DNA of 63,118 nt, counting the filler, from Licmophora abbreviata (taxonomy: Eukaryota), in NCBI GenBank assembly GCA_900291995.1. It is 6 parts of 6 records of this genome, joined end to end, with 100 filler letters (N's around TTAATTAATTAA, not from the genome) between each part and the next. Parts side by side here need not be neighbours in the genome. Positions count along the whole stretch, not along the records: positions 38,013 to 43,433 come from OLMU01004849.1; 5 more parts are not named here. One strand, written 5' to 3'. The notes under the pieces were generated by a model. It was not told where the DNA came from and searched no databases. It worked only from the letters and a program-made list of their open reading frames with translations. This document shows, one piece after another, positions 10,384-60,894 of this stretch; the stretch's first letter is position 1; each line of letters begins with the position of its first letter. The translations under genes and the position numbers were made by a program.

Positions 10384-13300
10384 TTAGGTGATGACGGTGG
10401 GAGTCTCGGTTCCGCAAAACTCCTTGATGTTGCAAAGTCCGAGCGCGACCTCCACAAGTTCCTCCAATGCATCCGAAACCAGCATGCCAGCGTTGGATGG
10501 CTCGTACTGCTCGATGTACATGCGCACAGTCGCACCAGATCCAGCTGTTCCAGACAAACGGAAGACAATGCGTGATCCATCACTCATGAGGAACCGAATG
10601 CCCTGCTTCTTCGCAACGGATCCGTCAACGGGGTCGACATAGGTGAAGTCGTCTGCGGTAGCGATTGTGTATTTTCCAACGGTGCGACCCGCGTTGGACG
10701 CAGTGTCGGCGCGCATTTTGTCCATCATGGCTGTAGCGCCAGTCTTGTCCATGCCCTCGAAGTCCCATCGGCAGTAGTAATTGCGGCCGTATTTGGCCCA
10801 GTGCTTCTTGACAATATCTTCGACCGTCACGAGAGGAGTGGAAGCATCTGTGTTAACAGATGCGAGAACGGAGAGCCATGCTAGAACCGCCCAGATACCG
10901 TCCTTCTCGCGGATGTGGTCCGAGCCAGTTCCGAAACTTTCCTCACCACAGATGAAAGGGGTGTAATCGATGCCGCCATAGATAGCCTTGGAATCCATCA
11001 AGTTTCCAAAGTACTTCCAACCCGTGGGCGTCTCGAAGAGATCGAAGTTCATGTCCTTCGCAACACGGTCGACAGCCCCACTTGTTGGCATGGAGCGTGC
11101 TACTCCCTTCAATCCGCCTTGTGTGCGGAAGAAAGGAATGGCATCGGCATATGCAGCAATGACGGCGAGAGAATCTGAAGGCGTCACAAAGAACTGAGAT
11201 CCGAGGATCATATTACGATCGGCGTCACCGTCAGCCGCAGCGCCAAAAGAAGGCACCTTGCGACCGCCCACGTCAATCTTGAGTCCCTTCTTGTCGAGCC
11301 CCATGATCTCGACGAGCTCTTTTGCGTAAGTAAGGTTGGGATCAGCGTGCCCACCATTGAAGTCGTCCTTCGGGATGGCGTTGAGGCAGACATCCTCGGA
11401 TTGACCGAGCTCGTCAACAAAGACTGCCTTGGCGTATGGCCCATTCACGCCGTGCATGGAATCGTAAATCATCGAGAAGTCATCGCGGTCCAACAATGCC
11501 TTGATTGCGCTGAAGTCGAAAATACTCTTGAGAAGGTCGACATGGCTCTTCGTTGCATCAATGACTTCGACATTGACCTCCGTGCTTCCATCCGCACTGA
11601 CAACCGACGTGTTTCCAACAGAACTGAGATCCACAGTGGGAAAGTCGGCGCAGATCTTGTAACTCTTGATTGTACCCGTGTTCGCGTACATGGCGCTTGT
11701 TAGCTTCTCAGGGGCGGGTCCACCGTTTTCGCAGTTGTATTTGATTCCAAAGTCCTCCTCTGGACCACCAGGATTGTGACTAGCAGTCAAGATGAACGCC
11801 CCAAAAGCCTTTTGCCAGACGGGACCACGCTCGCGAATAATTGCCGAAACTGCAGGGGTGGAGAGTAGTCCATCCTGTCCAATCCAGAAACGCTTCACAC
11901 CGTTGGCCACACCCATCTTGATGATCGTCTGAATGGCATCAGGGTTAAAATAACGTCCGTCTCCTCCAATCACGAGCGTTCCCTCCGACACATCAGTACC
12001 AGATTCCTTGATCGCATCAAACGCCGCCTGGACAAAGTTGTTGAGGTAGTTCTCGCTCATGAACAGCTTCGTCTTCTTGCGTAGACCCGACGTACCCGGC
12101 TTCTGCCCATCAATCGGAGACGTTGATACAGTTGTTGGCTTGAGGAGACCCATACCAACAGCATCTGCCAAGTCAAGATCGCCAGTGACTTCTCCAGCAG
12201 GCACTAACTTGGATTCATCGCTGCTATTGACAATGGAAACTTCACCGACAAACTTGGTCTGCTTGCCCATCCGCACCAATCCTTTCACCTTGAGGCGCTT
12301 GCACATCACCAAGGAAGGAATGCCTCCCGCTGTGGCTTCCTCCAACGCTCCCACGAGCTTGTATTTCTTGCTGTCCAGCTCCATGACGGGAGCGACGCCA
12401 CCGCAGGCCGGGTTGAGGACCGGACGGTGGTCGGGCGTGAGCACGTACGCATCGCTTCGCAACAGCAGCAAATCGTTGCACTTCTTGACGGGAGCAAAGC
12501 GAGTACGAGGGACCACAATGGCTGTGGCACCCTCAAAACACTCAATGGCAGCGCCCATGGCAGTTTCGAGCTGCACCACCTTTTGCGACGAGTCGTCCTT
12601 GGGGTCGACCGTCTTTTTGTTCTTAATCATGGGAAGTGGAATGAAGCCGCCATGTGTATCAATGATTTCCTTCAGCTTGTCGATACGAATCCACAAGTTG
12701 TTGGTATTGAAGAAACGATGCTTGGTGACATCCTGGAAGGAGGCTTCGTCCTCGTCGGCGCACATGGCAGACTCACGGAGTATGAGCTGGTTGTCGCTGT
12801 TGCGGAAGGCCAAATGTCCCCCCTTCTTGTCGTTCTCAGTACGTTCACAGCATTCCATCATGAAGGGTGCTTCAGTCTGAGCAAAGTGCGTGAGGATACT
12901 CATATCGAGGGTGGCACCAAGGTTGTCCGAGTTGGAAACAAACATGTACTTGAATCCGCCGGCGAGGAGTGCGTCGAGGCGGCCGGAACCGACCATGGCG
13001 GCGTACAAATCACCGTGACCAGGAGGACACCACTCATTGTCTGGGTTGCTTTCGCAAACGGCAGGCTGAACGAGGATAGATGAGAGTGGAGGGTCACAGA
13101 GCAAAGGGTAAGCAAAACATTCAATCATGATTTGTCAATAGCCATATGGTGGCACAAAAGAAAGTACAGTACGTACCTCAAAGGTGGTGGCATCCAACTT
13201 GGGAACCTTGTTCTGCATCATTTCAATTCCGTCTTCAGCAGCAAGTTCGGGATACTTTCCCTTCAAGAAGGCTAGCGTGTCTTCGCTGGTCGAGAAGGAG

Positions 13301-13972: not shown

Positions 13973-14072
13973 NNNNNNNNNNNNNNNNNNNNNNNNNNNN
14001 NNNNNNNNNNNNNNNNTTAATTAATTAANNNNNNNNNNNNNNNNNNNNNNNNNNNNNNNNNNNNNNNNNNNN
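13973..14072. other. Artificial contig spacer N44-TTAATTAATTAA-N44
   Basis: Identical 100-nt spacer with stops in all six frames, seen five times in the window. Confidence 0.97.
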
Positions 14073-37600: not shown

Positions 37601-38176
37601 ATATCTTCCACGCAGCCGTGTCGGGAGCCCCTGTAACAAGCTGGGAAGGCTACGACACACACTACACGGAGCGCTATATGGGCTTACCCTCCGACAATCC
37701 CTCTGGGTATCGCGAATCGGCGGTCTTGGACCACGTTCCCAATATGCGTGGCCGTCTTATGCTAGTTCACGGTCTGATTGACGAGAATGTGCACTTTCGT
37801 CACACGGCTCGTTTGATCAATCGCTTGATTGCTGCCGGCAAGGATTACGATTTGCTCATCTTTCCTGACGAACGACATTCTCCTCGTCGTCTTCGCGATC
37901 GGCTGTACATGGNNNNNNNNNNNNNNNNNNNNNNNNNNNNNNNNNNNNNNNNNNNNTTAATTAATTAANNNNNNNNNNNNNNNNNNNNNNNNNNNNNNNN
38001 NNNNNNNNNNNNAACAGCGCATTAGCGATTTCTTCTTGCGGCATTTGGGACTTCCACAGGCTCTTCAGAGTACACCTCCTTCCACTGCAATGTCGTCGTC
38101 GGCGACGGCCGTGGGCGGTCAGACAACAGCGACTGCAGATGGAGGCGGTGTGCGTACCGTGGCAGGTCACCTGTAA
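34675..38176 (+). CDS. Dipeptidyl peptidase IV/8/9-like (S9B) peptidase, interrupted by the artificial spacer 37913-38012
   Basis: 'QEEMDRYQGYWWSP', 'VYGGP', nucleophile 'GWSYGG', 'YDTHYTERYMG', 'HGLIDENVHF', 'FPDERH'. The frame continues across the gap as M-E-QRISDFFLRHL and stops at 38176. Confidence 0.92.
37913..38012. other. Artificial contig spacer
   Basis: N44-TTAATTAATTAA-N44. Confidence 0.97.
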
Positions 38177-38224
38177 AGTATGCCTATCATACTATTAGCT
38201 TACGACTTTCACAAGCTCCGTGTT

Positions 38225-38252
38225 GTAGTAGTAGTAGTAGTAGTAGTAGTAG
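38225..38252. repeat. (TAG)n microsatellite
   Basis: About 9 tandem tag units between convergent genes. Confidence 0.85.
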
Positions 38253-38288
38253 ACTGTTAAAGTCTACCTGGTCTCGCTGTCGTTCGCA

Positions 38289-39076
38289 CTACTTGTTACC
38301 ACTTCCGCTCAACTGGCCCACCGCCTGTTTGCGCACTTCCTTACTAATTCTCGCTTCAATCCTCTTATCCTCTTCCTCCGCAATCTGCTCTCGCACCTTC
38401 CGATAGGAGGGGTACCGAATCAAGACGTAGGTATTGTAAAAGGCCACTCCTACCAAGCATCCCGCCACAATCTTTCCAAACAAGTCATCGTAGGCCCAGG
38501 TGACACTGGCCATTAAAAAGTAAAAGAGAAATCGCCAGACGGCGCTAAAGAGAAAGCCAAAGTTGACGGCAATCATGACGCGCAAGAACTTCAATTGCGT
38601 TTCCATGCAACAGACCAGGAGACCACCGCAGGAGGCATAGACGGCCAAGACAAAGGTGGAGGGATCCGGAATGCCAATCATGACGAGAACCTGATGAAGG
38701 TGGGGGGTGATGTGAGATGGGGTGAGTATTGGAATTGTGTCATTGGAACAAAGTAGCATGGTCGAGTCGAACTAGTCGTATGTCTCCAAGTCCAACTTTC
38801 TGCAGCAAGGCGACGAAAGTCTCTCTCTGCGTGTCTTGCAAGGATTGATGCTCACACCCTCCTCCTGGTTTCAGTTTGACTCACCGAACAGGCAATGAGT
38901 GCTACGCTGACTCCCATATTGGCAAGACGCATGGTCAGAATGACGCCGGGCAGATCGCCATCTTGCACAGCGGCCGGTGCGGCCCGACTCGTGTTGTTGA
39001 CAGAGTCGACTTCCAGGACTGCTGCAGGAGCTGGTGCATCGGCAGCTGGGGTCAACCAGGAAGGAGAATCTGCCAT
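38289..39076 (-). CDS. COPI-associated / TVP15-like Golgi membrane protein; 2 exons
   Basis: 'MRLANMG', 'FVLAVY..CGGLLVCCME' and 'NFGFLFSAVWRFLFY', with several TM segments. Confidence 0.7.
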
Positions 39077-39406
39077 TGTGAGAAAAGAAAAAGAGAGCGA
39101 ACGACAAGCTGCTGCACTGTGCTGCCGGCTCACTGCACTCGTTGTGTCTCTCTCCCTGGGTCGTGCCCCTTCTACAAATGACGTACAAGCAGTACTGAGT
39201 TCCACGTACCTGGTATCGTACCACAGCTAGCATCACGATACCTTTTGGGAGGCTACATTTTTCGCCTCAACGGTTGAGTTTCGAACAAACGCATCGATGA
39301 AAACACAAAACTGAGAAAAACCACTTGAAAGACCCCATGACAAAGATCTCTCTCTTTGTGACGACGCCGTACATCCCAAAACAACAACAACAACAACAAC
39401 ATCACC

Positions 39407-40471
39407 ATGGGCGCCTCTTCTCATCAGGAAGAACTCTACAGTATCGATTGTTGCTCTTCTCACATTGCCTTGATTGTCAGCAGTCCAACCATCGATGACG
39501 ATGACGACAAACTACAAGACAATCAAGAGTGGAACAACAAGGAAAAGTCAGTTCCGCAGGGGGAATCGATAGAAGTAGCTCTCGACAAAGCTGCACCAGA
39601 CTCGAATCATACATCCTCGACCGTACAGAACCACGAGGATGAGGAAGATGAGGAAGACGAACTTGCCAGGACACCTGAATTCTTTTCCAATGACCATGAT
39701 GATGATGATGATGATGATGATGAAGCATCCGTTGACCGTACAACGGCGACAGCGGGACAAGACCAAAGTAGTAGTGGTAGTTTTCATAATGAAAGTCTTC
39801 AAGAAGAAGGAACGAGGGAAAGTACGACGACAGACGAGGCCTGGAGAAAGTTAAAGGCATCCACACTACTGCTGGGTCAAGTTTTAGACGACACGACGGG
39901 CTTTTCGTACATATGGAAGGGTCTGCAAGATCACGTTGTGGAACTGGATGAACAAGCCAAAGAACGATCGGAAGTTTACAAGGAAGCGTCCAGTCGGGTG
40001 GGTGATTGGTGGAAGCATACTATTCAGTCGAGTCATGATCATGATGATGATGGCAGTGTTCCGACGAGCGGTGCAAGGAGTGCAACTCACTCGACAACAA
40101 CGGCAGGTGAGGTGCGTGTCGAAAGTCTTGCGAATGAGAAAGACGACACTGCAAAGCCTACAATAGAAGCATCGGAATCGACACCACGACAGTCCTTGGA
40201 GCAAGATCATCATCATCATCATCACAAACTACTAAAATCCACAAAGGACAAGCTACGGTCATTGGATGAACAACATCAATTGCTAAAGTCGACAGCGGAA
40301 AGACTCACCAAGGGGGCAGACTTTCTCACGCGAACAATACTGAGTGGTAGTGGTATTGGAAAAGGTGATGAGAATCGTATGGATGGTGGAGCTACTGTAA
40401 GAGCGGGCCCATCGCCGGGCACGATGAAACTTCATTCTGTAATGGAGCGGCCAGGGGGAGCCAATGTCTAG
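39407..40471 (+). CDS. Acidic low-complexity hypothetical protein
   Basis: 354-aa ORF with poly-D and poly-H tracts. Confidence 0.55.
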   Translation: MGASSHQEELYSIDCCSSHIALIVSSPTIDDDDDKLQDNQEWNNKEKSVPQGESIEVALDKAAPDSNHTSSTVQNHEDEEDEEDELARTPEFFSNDHDDDDDDDDEASVDRTTATAGQDQSSSGSFHNESLQEEGTRESTTTDEAWRKLKASTLLLGQVLDDTTGFSYIWKGLQDHVVELDEQAKERSEVYKEASSRVGDWWKHTIQSSHDHDDDGSVPTSGARSATHSTTTAGEVRVESLANEKDDTAKPTIEASESTPRQSLEQDHHHHHHKLLKSTKDKLRSLDEQHQLLKSTAERLTKGADFLTRTILSGSGIGKGDENRMDGGATVRAGPSPGTMKLHSVMERPGGANV

Positions 40472-40512
40472 TAGAGCCTGTTGGGATTCGAATATTTACA
40501 AGGCCGCCTCTA

Positions 40513-42561
40513 CTACGTTTTGCTTTTAGTAGGCAGCTTCTCTTCGTCTACGCGCGGCAAGTGACTTCGATAGTTGTTGCCATTGGTACTCGGAGCATCT
40601 CGCTGATAGGTGTCGACGTGATGACCGTTCGTCATGGCAAGGGAACCGCCATTGGTGTAACCATTGATGGAATGGCCATTCGAGACCCGTGCTTCCGATA
40701 GCTTGGAGTAGTTATGATGTTGGGCGTGTTTCGATGTCTTCGTTGCAAGCGTCTTGAGCGCCAACACGACCAATATCATCAGCACGACGCTGCCGCACGC
40801 CAAACCCACTCCGACTCCCACACGCCACAGCGATATGGGACTTCTGGCGGCATGCGCCAAACAGGTAGGACCGGTCCACAGCAAGGAACATTCACACGTG
40901 TGATTGCGCAGGGTAGACATACACGTCCCGCGTCCTGCGTATCCACCGCAGTCATGGTCGTGCTGGCAGGATCCGCCGCCCTTCATGATTGACAGCAAGG
41001 GGCGAGTCTGGTCCGGTAGCTTGTATCGATCCAAGTGAGACTCGATGAAGTGTTTCGTAGGACGAGATTTTGGGGAACACCCTATTGTGTGCTTTGATTC
41101 TTCAGCTGCTTGGTACACTCTCACATAGTCAATCTCGAGCGACGCGGGAAGGTTCTCGCAGAATCCTTCTGGGAGCGCACACGAGCGACAGCAGGGATTG
41201 CCGCAATCGTAACATTTGCATTTACAATTCAGAAAGTACGCATCCGGCATGGCCCAATCCTTCGACACAGCCAAGTTCATCAACAAGTACATTGGTTCAC
41301 TGGGAATTTCGGTCCCAGATACTCGCAGACTTTCACCAGGAATACCCGACACGAGCTTGCCGTCTACATACCATCGGATGTAGCCATCGTCATGCTTGCT
41401 AGGTGGCTCCCATTCGACTCGATACAAGTGCTGATGGAAAAAGTGACTGCTGTTGAGCAGCATATTGGTCGAAATAGCATCTGTCTGATAGGACTCCATG
41501 TCGTTCTCCCAGAAGCGTGCTCCGTAAAAGTATGTATTCAAGGATGCCTTCGTTTCTCGACCGTATTGAATGTCAGGATACCAAACTTGAGTCTTGTTGC
41601 AAAGCACATCAAGGGATGCAGTGAGTCAGACTGTGAGAGGGTCGATGGCCAAACAATGAACAATACTCTTCATACTTTAAGTTTCTTACCGCATTCGGAG
41701 CATGTCCCACTTTCGGTCGATGTTTTTCTATGCCTGGTGCCACTTGCAGTGATGTGGACAAGACAGGAGCCGGCCAAGATCGCATGTACATGGTTTCGAG
41801 TAGGTCGATTTCGGGAGCGCCGCGTCCTAGTTTTGACGTACAAGAGTTGATTTCTTGCTGTCCGAAGCGCGTCCTGTCGTCGCAGACATTGGTACTGTAC
41901 GGCCAGAGTCGTTCCGTCGACTTGATATAGGTCGCCCGAGCCAGGTTGCCCATCATCCAGACTTTGTAAAACGTCGAATTCGTTAAGGTGTGAATGAGTG
42001 CAGGCATGAATAAACCAGACTTCTGCATCAGATTGAACAAAGACAGACTGGTCAGGACTTACCTGCCGGCCATAGGCCTCCGATCCTAGGATCGCCAGGT
42101 AATTTGACGGAAACCTCAAGAATTCCTCCTGTAAAGCAAAATTTGTTCCAGCTCTGCAACATGCCGCTTTGAAAGTTCTTTCTTTCTGTCTTGTTTTCTC
42201 CCATAGGAAAATCCTTTGGTTTAGCATCGATGGTCAAGTTGAGCACGCCGTTTGATGTCGTAACGGCATCATGGCTGTAGTAGTGAAGAGGGTTGTTGGT
42301 AGCGTCGTTTTTGTCAAGGGCTGTCCATCGAGGGTCGTGTCCATCGTGAAACGTTCTCCCGTCCTGCTGAAACTCATCTGAAAAGACCAGCCTGTAATGC
42401 CGGTCATCTCCAACAGTGAACGCGGTGGTACTTCGAGAGAAGTCGGGGGTATCGGGATCGACCCAATCAGGCTCAGTGGCGGCGATCCAAAATAGACCGG
42501 ACAAGACGAGAGTTCGAACGAGAAAAGTCCCGATTCTGCAAGGAGCGCTCATTAACACCAT
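40513..42561 (-). CDS. KRE6/SKN1-type GH16 beta-1,6-transglycosylase; 3 exons
   Basis: Signal peptide, 'WVDPDTP', 'LVFSDEF', 'QSGMLQSWNKFCFTGG', 'GLWPA.WMMGNLARA', catalytic 'GRGAPEIDLLE', 'IPSEPMYL', 'IDYVRVYQ', then a Cys-rich segment and C-terminal TM. Confidence 0.9.
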
Positions 42562-42818
42562 CGAGTACTGTCTATCGTACATTTCCTGTCACTGGTTGAC
42601 CACTGTCGTGGCGCTCGGCCTCCGACAACGCTGATCTATACCGGTCGTTACCTACCAGGGTACCATCATCTGCTGAATCAACTCCGGAAGTTTGGAAAGG
42701 GCGCGCCCAATCAATCACAAGTCACGCATGACGGGAGCATTTGAGTCCCGGAGTTTACGTAAACCACTTATTTTGTATTATTACTTGGCCTCTTCCTCCA
42801 ACCCGAAACCGGGCAGAC

Positions 42819-42895
42819 ATCAGGAGATTCCGGGTTCGAATCCCGGGCGGAATTCTTCTGTTCCGTTGGCCCAACGGTAAGGCGCCTGACTACGG
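42819..42895 (+). tRNA. Circularly permuted tRNA-Arg(ACG): 3' half 42819-42854, 5-nt spacer, 5' half 42860-42895
   Basis: Joining 42860-42895 to 42819-42854 gives a complete cloverleaf: acceptor GTTCCGT/GCGGAAT, D arm GCCCAACGGTAAGGC, anticodon arm CCTGA-CT-ACG-GA-TCAGG, T arm CCGGG-TTCGAAT-CCCGG. Confidence 0.9.
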
Positions 42896-42900
42896 CTCGA

Positions 42901-42906
42901 TTTTTT
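42901..42906 (+). terminator. Putative RNA polymerase III T6 terminator of the permuted tRNA
   Basis: TTTTTT 5 nt after the 5' half. Confidence 0.65.
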
Positions 42907-43200
42907 ACCCTCGGGGCCCCATGCCGCTTCACTTCTTTTTTGTTGCTGTCTTCAGTTTTGGTGAAGGTGGCCAACAACTACTGTACCTCTTCTAGCTAGA
43001 TTATCAGTAGCCCAGGCGACGAATGTCAGCAAGATGCTTACTAACTAGCTTCCGACGTCTTGACGATGCAGCTCAGGAACACTGCCATGCTGCAGAGGTG
43101 TGACCCCATTTTTTTTAATGTCCATACACTGCTATTGCCCATTGTCGCATATATATCCATGGAATACTCATTACACGCGAGCTAGGCCATGCTCTCCGCA

Positions 43201-43433
43201 AGGATCCAACTTCGCGCCCATCCTTTTCACGTGCGGTATCGTCTTGCTACTATCTTCTTCTGTGGGACGATTCAAAGCCAACGAGTCTGACCGACGGCGG
43301 ATTGCTTTTGCTTTCAGTAGAGCATTTGCCGCCCTCTTGCTCGCTCACTTTGACTTGGTACGCTTGCCGAGTCTCTCCTTCGTGTTCGAGCAATGTTCCA
43401 CAGTTCCGATACTGGAGTACAACGGGGTTCCCA
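43201..43433 (-). repeat. Near-identical copy (allele or paralog) of the 3' end of the gene at 43534-44736
   Basis: Matches 43534-43753 apart from a few SNPs and a 13-nt indel. Confidence 0.9.
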
Positions 43434-43533
43434 NNNNNNNNNNNNNNNNNNNNNNNNNNNNNNNNNNNNNNNNNNNNTTAATTAATTAANNNNNNNNNNN
43501 NNNNNNNNNNNNNNNNNNNNNNNNNNNNNNNNN
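43434..43533. other. Artificial contig spacer
   Basis: N44-TTAATTAATTAA-N44. Confidence 0.97.
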
Positions 43534-50109: not shown

Positions 50110-50209
50110 NNNNNNNNNNNNNNNNNNNNNNNNNNNNNNNNNNNNNNNNNNNNTTAATTAATTAANNNNNNNNNNNNNNNNNNNNNNNNNNNNNNNNNNN
50201 NNNNNNNNN
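50110..50209. other. Artificial contig spacer
   Basis: N44-TTAATTAATTAA-N44. Confidence 0.97.
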
Positions 50210-60794: not shown

Positions 60795-60894
60795 NNNNNN
60801 NNNNNNNNNNNNNNNNNNNNNNNNNNNNNNNNNNNNNNTTAATTAATTAANNNNNNNNNNNNNNNNNNNNNNNNNNNNNNNNNNNNNNNNNNNN
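60795..60894. other. Artificial contig spacer
   Basis: N44-TTAATTAATTAA-N44. Confidence 0.97.

Follow-up and report, generated by a model that had tools for sequence, protein, structure and literature searches.

A circularly permuted tRNA-Arg(ACG) gene in the diatom Licmophora abbreviata, very probably a working member of a multi-copy family

In circularly permuted tRNA genes the tRNA's 3' half is encoded ahead of the 5' half. Such genes are listed for Cyanidioschyzon merolae, Ostreococcus, Micromonas, Auxenochlorella, the nucleomorph of Bigelowiella natans and Thermofilum in the available portions of PMC3978253, PMC13578239, PMC12636532 and PMC3218864. Here we analyse a gene of this kind in a stretch of 63,118 nucleotides from the diatom Licmophora abbreviata (assembly GCA_900291995.1), hereafter the window, in which six parts of that genome are joined with filler between them. 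The filler takes the form of two 44-base N runs with 12 bases in between, at five places (13973-14072, 37913-38012, 43434-43533, 50110-50209 and 60795-60894), the third of which lies about 530 nt downstream of the tRNA gene. The gene encodes a tRNA-Arg(ACG) and lies in the part taken from record OLMU01004849.1 (window positions 38,013 to 43,433). To judge from its sequence and from that of its relatives, it is very probably a working permuted gene of type II, i.e. one with its break between positions 37 and 38. The design itself is known; what is new is the lineage, a diatom. The full-text literature that could be searched, which leaves out most subscription journals and supplements, contained no report of a permuted tRNA gene in a diatom or any other stramenopile, as the initial annotation of this locus had surmised. 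Arg(ACG) is also not among the 34 permuted genes tabulated in the portion of PMC3978253 available, where arginine is represented by Arg(TCT) in O. tauri and Arg(CCT) in C. merolae.

The closest described genes are those of Ostreococcus and Micromonas and of the B. natans nucleomorph. According to the accessible text of PMC3978253, they have in common with the window gene the 37/38 junction, a relaxed hBH splice motif suited to the eukaryal endonuclease, and an intervening sequence that is short (5 nt in B. natans and 11-64 nt in the green algae); the unit is likewise preceded by an AT-rich region and followed by a T-stretch. The diatom genes differ in being stramenopile nuclear genes for Arg(ACG), present in multiple copies (up to two per contig) and coexisting with linear genes; some copies lie 4-9 nt behind another tRNA gene. 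In C. merolae the processing logic is the same, i.e. a cut at a bulge-helix-bulge (BHB) motif, a circular intermediate, trimming by RNase P as well as tRNase Z, and CCA addition. The C. merolae genes also resemble the diatom ones in their upstream TATA-like element and downstream T-stretch, and 6 of the 11 are of type II. However, the junctions in that alga also fall at 20/21, 50/51 and 59/60, there are extra ectopic introns, the genes are single-copy, and the splicing endonuclease apparently has a broader specificity (all from the same part of PMC3978253), whereas the diatom family uses 37/38 only, in all 68 permuted genes listed in our scan. The tRNA-iMet and tRNA-Tyr genes of Thermofilum pendens likewise have permuted halves joined through a BHB-like motif, but they are archaeal, have their junction at 59/60, encode the CCA in the gene, have linkers of 1-7 nt and carry extra introns (PMC3218864, text available in part). 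In Auxenochlorella UTEX 250-A, the halves are reversed as here, and the genes came to light through an incomplete tRNAscan-SE set; the carrier is a green alga, a trebouxiophyte (PMC12636532, likewise available in part). Relative to all these systems, the diatom family is unusual in having many copies, in coexisting with linear genes, in being linked to other tRNA genes and in preserving a tandem intermediate.

The window gene lies on the plus strand. Its 3' half (A38-U73, 42819-42854) starts with ATCAGG and runs through the 3' strand of the anticodon stem, the variable loop AGATT and the T arm CCGGG/TTCGAAT/CCCGG, which holds a B-box-like GGTTCGAATCC at 42833-42843; it closes with the acceptor 3' strand GCGGAAT and the discriminator T73 (42854). 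The linker CTTCT (42855-42859), 5 nt long, caps the acceptor stem as a loop. The 5' half (G1-G37, 42860-42895) follows, with the acceptor 5' strand GTTCCGT, U8, the D arm with an A-box-like TGGCCCAACGG at 42867-42877, the anticodon stem CCTGA and the loop C-U-A-C-G-G; the anticodon ACG (42892-42894) stands after C32 and U33 and before G37. Sequence, ARAGORN and a covariance model agree on both halves. The unit is preceded by a leader, AAACCGGGCAGAC (42806-42818), and followed by a trailer, CTCGA (42896-42900), and by a T6 run (42901-42906), five bases past G37, that is a putative terminator of RNA polymerase III (Pol III). The initial annotation had given the order of the halves and the linker correctly to the base, and the T6 run is found where it had been placed.

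When the halves are swapped, ARAGORN makes a single call, a tRNA-Arg(acg) of 72 nt, in agreement with the full cloverleaf broken at 37/38 that had been proposed. The rearranged tRNA has an acceptor stem of 7 bp (two of them G-U pairs), a D stem of 3 bp and anticodon and T stems of 5 bp each, and the conserved elements U8, the GG of the D loop, U33 and the T-loop TTCGA are all visible. In its native order the gene goes unseen by the scanners, as had been anticipated: ARAGORN finds no tRNA in the 63-kb window, nor in 42700-43000 when introns are allowed, and Rfam gives no gathering-level match to the native gene. No further copy of either half was found anywhere in the window, which extends the earlier remark that none lies nearby. 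The features of a type II (37/38) gene are thus all present at the sequence level: the order of the halves, the cloverleaf, the BHB, a single transcription unit and a conserved layout. The gene had been called a permuted gene with its break at 37/38, and the assignment stands, except that it is not a singleton but one of a large family.

We identified this family by one scan of metagenome contigs with a pattern that covers this tRNA's D and anticodon arms and that detects linear and permuted genes alike. The scan returned at least 123 loci, so that all counts for the family are lower bounds, and the total of 68 genes used below includes the window gene. Of the matches listed, which number 129 (128 in 123 loci and the one in the window), 79 are permuted and 37 linear, and the other 13 are unclassified. 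The 79 permuted matches correspond to at least 68 distinct genes, with 27 distinct mature sequences and 15 variants of the acceptor stem. The linear matches include at least 10 distinct genes of the same tRNA family, against at least 68 permuted ones, and another 20 distinct linear genes among the matches listed that belong to a different, GGTC-type family. One mature sequence is common to linear and permuted forms. Four of the 13 unclassified matches end at a contig edge; L030, L039 and L096 are in permuted order as far as the contig goes, and L073 shows eight bases before the match. Three more are decayed or interrupted permuted copies, and six are of other kinds.

The rearranged sequences of all 68 listed permuted genes are called tRNA-Arg(acg) by ARAGORN. 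In their native DNA an Arg(ACG) gene is seen in a single case, the tandem locus L059. Apart from this locus, no member of the 68 is immediately preceded by a 5' half or immediately followed by a 3' half. Linkers range from 3 to 21 nt, with 5 nt the commonest length, and both linkers and flanks are unrelated among distinct permuted units. The initial annotation had suggested a search for further permuted genes and for other diatom carriers, and the answer is a family of at least 68 distinct Arg(ACG) units, one of them on a Skeletonema-like contig. A scan of the window and the 123 loci for other permuted tRNA species found only Arg(ACG) units; the calls with other anticodons in that scan were discarded, as they result from ARAGORN misplacing the junction at Arg(ACG) units.

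The sequences show strong evidence of constraint on the tRNA. In an alignment of 65 genes including the window gene (A1), for which the structure was specified by hand, pairing is complete (100%) in the anticodon, T and D stems and amounts to 99.1% in the acceptor stem. Double compensatory changes occur at 7 stem pairs. Covariation scores 0.224, compared with 0.114 for shuffles, none of which (0/500) attains the observed value; all slid registers score far lower. The window itself contributes a private compensatory pair, U3:A70, the sole AU against 64 GC (columns 53/80), whose two sides lie in different halves. We also built a covariance model (R1) from 64 environmental genes (alignment A2), leaving the window out. 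It matches the window exactly once, at 42799-42907 on the plus strand, over its full length and with 108.4 bits (E 2.7e-28). Finally, four DNA runs with small shares of the stretch were compared with 41800-43433. One of them, run X1 (marine metagenome DNA), contains a Logan contig colinear with 42819-42894, i.e. a permuted copy, with different flanks. It differs from the window at 42851 (A>G), 42852 (A>C), 42861 (T>G) and 42862 (T>C), which turn U2:A71 and U3:A70 into G2:C71 and C3:G70, two more compensatory pairs of the acceptor stem.

These data bear on one alternative, an assembly artefact or a chance resemblance to a tRNA. Its starting point is that the order of the halves in the window is known from assembled sequence. 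However, the same layout recurs on dozens of independent contigs and on the contig of run X1, which speaks against an artefact. As for chance, a home-made scan for permuted tRNAs passes one of three candidates in the real window and none in 30 dinucleotide shuffles of it, and the E-value of the covariance model points the same way. We therefore consider this alternative to be effectively refuted already. A linear copy comes from run X7 (DNA of organism B), where one record has the 5' half continuing straight into the 3' half. Another record of that run, record 7, is a 151-nt contig that aligns at window positions 42817-42847, with a GTAG-containing leader and a matching 3' half, and then continues without a good acceptor stem or an Arg 5' half; possible readings of this contig are a chimeric unitig, a degenerate copy and a different permuted gene.

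A type II gene should carry a splice motif between its leader and trailer. In the window, with leader positions given as negative and trailer positions as positive numbers, the central helix consists of C32:G-3, U33:A-4, a mismatch A34/C-5, and C35:G-6. It is flanked by bulges of 3 nt each, A-C-A38 (A-2, C-1, A38) at the predicted 3' cut and G36-G37-C+1 at the predicted 5' cut. An outer helix joins -7 to -13 of the leader with +2 to +8 of the trailer through U:G, C:G, G:C, an A/C mismatch and three U:A pairs. Elements of this motif recur across the listed permuted genes: G is found at -3 in 52 of the 68 and a purine at -4 in 66, and +1 is never G. Positions -3 and -4, which pair with C32 and U33, are those of the anticodon-intron pair, used by eukaryal splicing endonucleases (section 8 of PMC3978253, of which part is available). 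If the length of the bulge is left free, the leader pairs all four of C32-C35 in 33 of 68 genes and in none of 65 control windows.

The outer helix shows clear covariation. Positions -7 and +2 pair in 55 genes out of 65, where 28.8 would be expected, and do so through six types of pair; -8 and +3 pair in 42, where 26.0 would be expected. Neither count is attained in any of 5000 shuffles. Slid registers are lower, and the covariation holds in 46 flank-distinct genes. Hence, within flanks that are otherwise unconserved, leader and trailer covary where the BHB predicts the outer helix. Between the helices, -6:+1 pairs in 38 of 65 genes (28.7 expected; reached by 30 of 5000 shuffles), at times lengthening the outer helix. 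We classify the motif as of the relaxed hBH type, since 34:-5 and 35:-6 pair in a minority of genes and -6:+1 sometimes pairs instead; this type has been described for green-algal type II genes in the part of PMC3978253 available. A strict hBHBh' motif was considered and dropped, because 34:-5 and 35:-6 are often open, a 3-nt leader bulge is better in 14 genes, and -6:+1 pairs.

The permuted genes also show signals of a transcription unit. An internal T4 between A38 and G37 occurs in none of the 68 listed genes. When acceptor end and discriminator spell TTT, the next base is T in 0 of 25 cases, even though T makes up 28% of linker bases. A run of T4 or longer lies within 12 nt past G37 in 40 of 65 genes, compared with 21 of 337 upstream control windows. 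Upstream, TATA occurrences peak 50-36 nt before A38, and the AT fraction reaches 0.80 at -40 to -36 (63 genes). The window gene fits all four signals: it has no T4 run inside the unit, its T6 run lies outside it, starting five bases after G37, and an AT-rich, TATA-like stretch, TTATTTTGTATTATTACTT (42768-42786), is found 33-51 nt upstream of A38. By likeness to C. merolae (PMC3978253, accessible text), this stretch is a putative upstream promoter element for TFIIIB and Pol III.

In some relatives a different arrangement is found. An ordinary tRNA gene ends 4-9 nt before A38, namely tRNA-Met CAT in L022, L052, L088 and L093, tRNA-Lys CTT in L032 and tRNA-Val TAC in L109. In such units the spacer is itself the BHB leader. 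The internal promoter of the upstream gene probably drives both genes of a linked pair as a single dicistronic Pol III unit, which suggests a second answer to the reversed order of A and B boxes. Among the Met-linked units, a T4 run follows within 60 nt in L088 and L093, and none in L021, L022 (where the contig ends early) and L052.

The explanation that best accounts for these data, and one we regard as highly likely on sequence grounds, is that the locus is a functional nuclear type II (37/38) gene, one member of a multi-copy family widespread in diatoms. It is important to list the observations that weigh against it. We infer the expression of the window gene, and its promoter logic is unproven, with the B box standing before the A box. 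The central helix of the splice motif contains the A/C mismatch. The unconstrained minimum free energy (MFE) structure of 42803-42904 comprises the permuted cloverleaf and a leader-trailer helix, but it pairs -5 with G37 and -6 with +1 in place of the central helix. The pairings that the initial annotation had listed for the BHB are right, and the covariation in the family agrees with them, while the central helix is replaced in the unconstrained fold. The MFE z-score of the same region is not significant (-0.81), as is usual for GC-rich RNA of the size of a tRNA. Across the family, 34:-5 pairs in 24 and 35:-6 in 28 of 65 genes, and the energy of the whole leader/trailer duplex is no more than modestly better for matched than for mismatched partners (-4.53 against -3.71 kcal/mol), a difference reached by 26 of 5000 shuffles. 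Position-specific covariation is the informative test here, unlike the MFE z-score and the whole-duplex energy. Moreover, some permuted copies are decayed or interrupted (the second copy of L011, L064 and L086). Linear genes of the same family coexist with the permuted ones, so that the latter cannot be taken as essential, and some of the conservation could be imitated by gene conversion from the linear genes.

Some of these points would fit a dead relic of a tandem array of intron-containing tRNA-Arg(ACG) genes, with halves kept tRNA-like only by conversion from working linear copies elsewhere in the genome. Such linear copies do exist in diatoms and have one mature sequence in common with the permuted form; the tandem at L059 is an arrangement from which relics could be cut, and some copies are clearly decayed. 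However, the covariation of leader and trailer at -7:+2 and -8:+3, the conserved G at -3 and the purine at -4 argue against a relic, as do the terminator 3-7 nt past G37, the avoidance of internal T4 and the TATA peak. Conversion cannot explain these features of flank, terminator and promoter, because a linear gene without an intron offers no counterpart to these sequences. Moreover, a cloverleaf is still obtained from all 68 distinct units, in spite of their unrelated linkers and flanks. A dead relic is thus improbable.

Another alternative is that expression of the locus yields a stable RNA, circular or tRNA-like, that serves in regulation or in some other way, with decoding left to the linear genes. 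The redundancy with linear genes would fit this scenario, as would the best, though weak, Rfam match, to YrlA, a non-coding RNA that resembles a tRNA and has its arms in the same order. We tried and rejected this match (YrlA/Y RNA-like, RF02553) as an identification: it scores 23.2 bits against a gathering threshold of 69, and shares only the succession of T arm, acceptor stem and D arm. The permuted genes agree exactly with the linear ones in anticodon loop, ACG anticodon and all four stems, which is not what a non-decoding RNA would lead one to expect. The T or G discriminator of the permuted genes and their short, unconserved linker fit plain removal by RNase P and tRNase Z. Among the matches listed, the permuted form is also the commoner one, and the known product in algae is an aminoacylated tRNA (section 5 of PMC3978253, in the part available). 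Taken together, these points make a non-decoding RNA slightly less plausible still than a relic.

If the locus is a functional gene, its product could be made as follows, each step being modelled on algal precedents. Pol III would be positioned by the upstream TATA-like element or, in some relatives, by the abutting upstream tRNA gene. It would start about 8-12 nt ahead of A38, produce one transcript with leader, 3' half, 5-nt linker, 5' half and short trailer, and would stop in the T-run. The RNA would fold into a cloverleaf in which the linker closes the acceptor stem and the anticodon loop is open, and leader and trailer would form the relaxed bulge-helix-bulge, anchored by G-3:C32 and A-4:U33. 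The tRNA splicing endonuclease would then cleave after G37 and before A38, and tRNA ligase would join G37 to A38 to give a 77-nt circle. From this, RNase P and tRNase Z would excise CUUCU out of the acceptor loop, after which CCA would be added and A34 deaminated to inosine; the tRNA would therefore read CGU, CGC and CGA. The pathway is documented for red and green algae in sections 5, 6 and 8 of PMC3978253, as far as available, and homologues of the Trl1-type ligase are stated to exist in diatoms in the accessible part of PMC4090602. The permuted gene need not be the only source of tRNA-Arg(ACG), because linear genes exist in at least some diatoms.

The family may also inform on how such genes arise. 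At L059 (minus strand) two permuted units stand in tandem; they are 19 nt apart, their starts are separated by about 96 nt, and no T-run intervenes. To ARAGORN the middle of this locus is an ordinary tRNA-Arg(ACG) interrupted at 37/38 by a 19-nt intron. The tandem-duplication model of how permuted genes originate, set out in the legend of Fig. 5 in PMC3978253 (source available in part), predicts this intermediate. We lean towards the view that in diatoms, centric and pennate, most tRNA-Arg(ACG) genes are written with their halves reversed, in a proliferating multi-copy family that came from tandem duplication of an intron-containing gene, with L059 as a preserved intermediate and the linear genes as a minority.

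Other loci depart from the common layout. At L011 (minus strand) a second copy lies about 185 nt downstream of an intact permuted gene and lacks most of its T arm, i.e. it is a decaying duplicate. In the linear gene at L020:1001-1230 (plus strand), beside a PRK gene, an insert splits the T loop between GGGTTCG and AATCC; in the permuted gene of L064/L086 (minus strand) an insert splits it between CCGGGT and TCGAATCC. The inserts are about 86-87 nt long, start with GTAAGT and end with CAG, as spliceosomal introns do, and are CA-rich and not clearly homologous to each other. The split genes could be dead copies struck by introner-like elements, or they could represent an undescribed kind of tRNA intron.

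A widespread diatom family would have several consequences. It would bring the phenomenon into the stramenopiles, in algae that are ecologically dominant and genetically tractable. No stramenopile nuclear genome would have shown it before, and every standard annotation of diatom tRNAs would have missed it. Counts of diatom tRNA genes, and the analyses of codon usage and tRNA adaptation that depend on them, would miss these genes. Circularisation of a pre-tRNA by endonuclease and ligase would be a routine step of translation in a main primary producer of the ocean. The coexistence of linear and permuted genes for the same tRNA would provide a natural comparison, with a bearing on the tandem-duplication model of their origin and on the benefit, if any, of the circular route. 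The genes would also be a simple system in which to study promoter logic with the B box ahead of the A box.

The identity of the carriers can be read from neighbouring protein genes. The permuted gene of L007 (and that of L058) adjoins a gene whose product is the diatom pyrenoid shell protein (PF25192 in Pfam, E 1.6e-67); the L007 protein is 82% identical to that of Skeletonema marinoi and 66% to that of Thalassiosira pseudonana. The linear gene of L044 adjoins a phosphoribulokinase gene with 87-89% identity to Thalassiosira, Detonula and Skeletonema. As the permuted L007 is Skeletonema-like and the linear L044 lies on a Thalassiosirales contig, both layouts occur in Thalassiosirales. The window represents a second diatom with a permuted gene, and its best named protein hits come from pennate diatoms. 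For the PP2C neighbour in L063, of the TCTGA/TCAGA subgroup, the Atlas clusters are generic (Streptophyta) and indicate no taxon. When the tRNA was masked, a tblastx search for synteny of the window with the metagenome loci yielded one unrelated hit; an earlier tblastn recovered only the tRNA itself.

In the window, the tRNA locus is flanked by a beta-glucan gene of the KRE6/SKN1 type (40513-42582) and by Tic110-like open reading frames. The KRE6-like frame has its best named homologues in Amphora coffeaeformis, at 52% identity, and in Fistulifera solaris, at 54%. Farther away, at 10384-13134 on the minus strand, a single frame of 916 amino acids fuses UDP-glucose pyrophosphorylase to a complete phosphoglucomutase; its nearest Atlas cluster (score 0.93) is eukaryotic, with Bacillariophyta as the commonest phylum. 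The homologues of the KRE6-like gene and the cluster of this fusion both fit the diatom host named at the outset. With these two genes, the window is rich in genes of the beta-glucan (chrysolaminarin) pathway.

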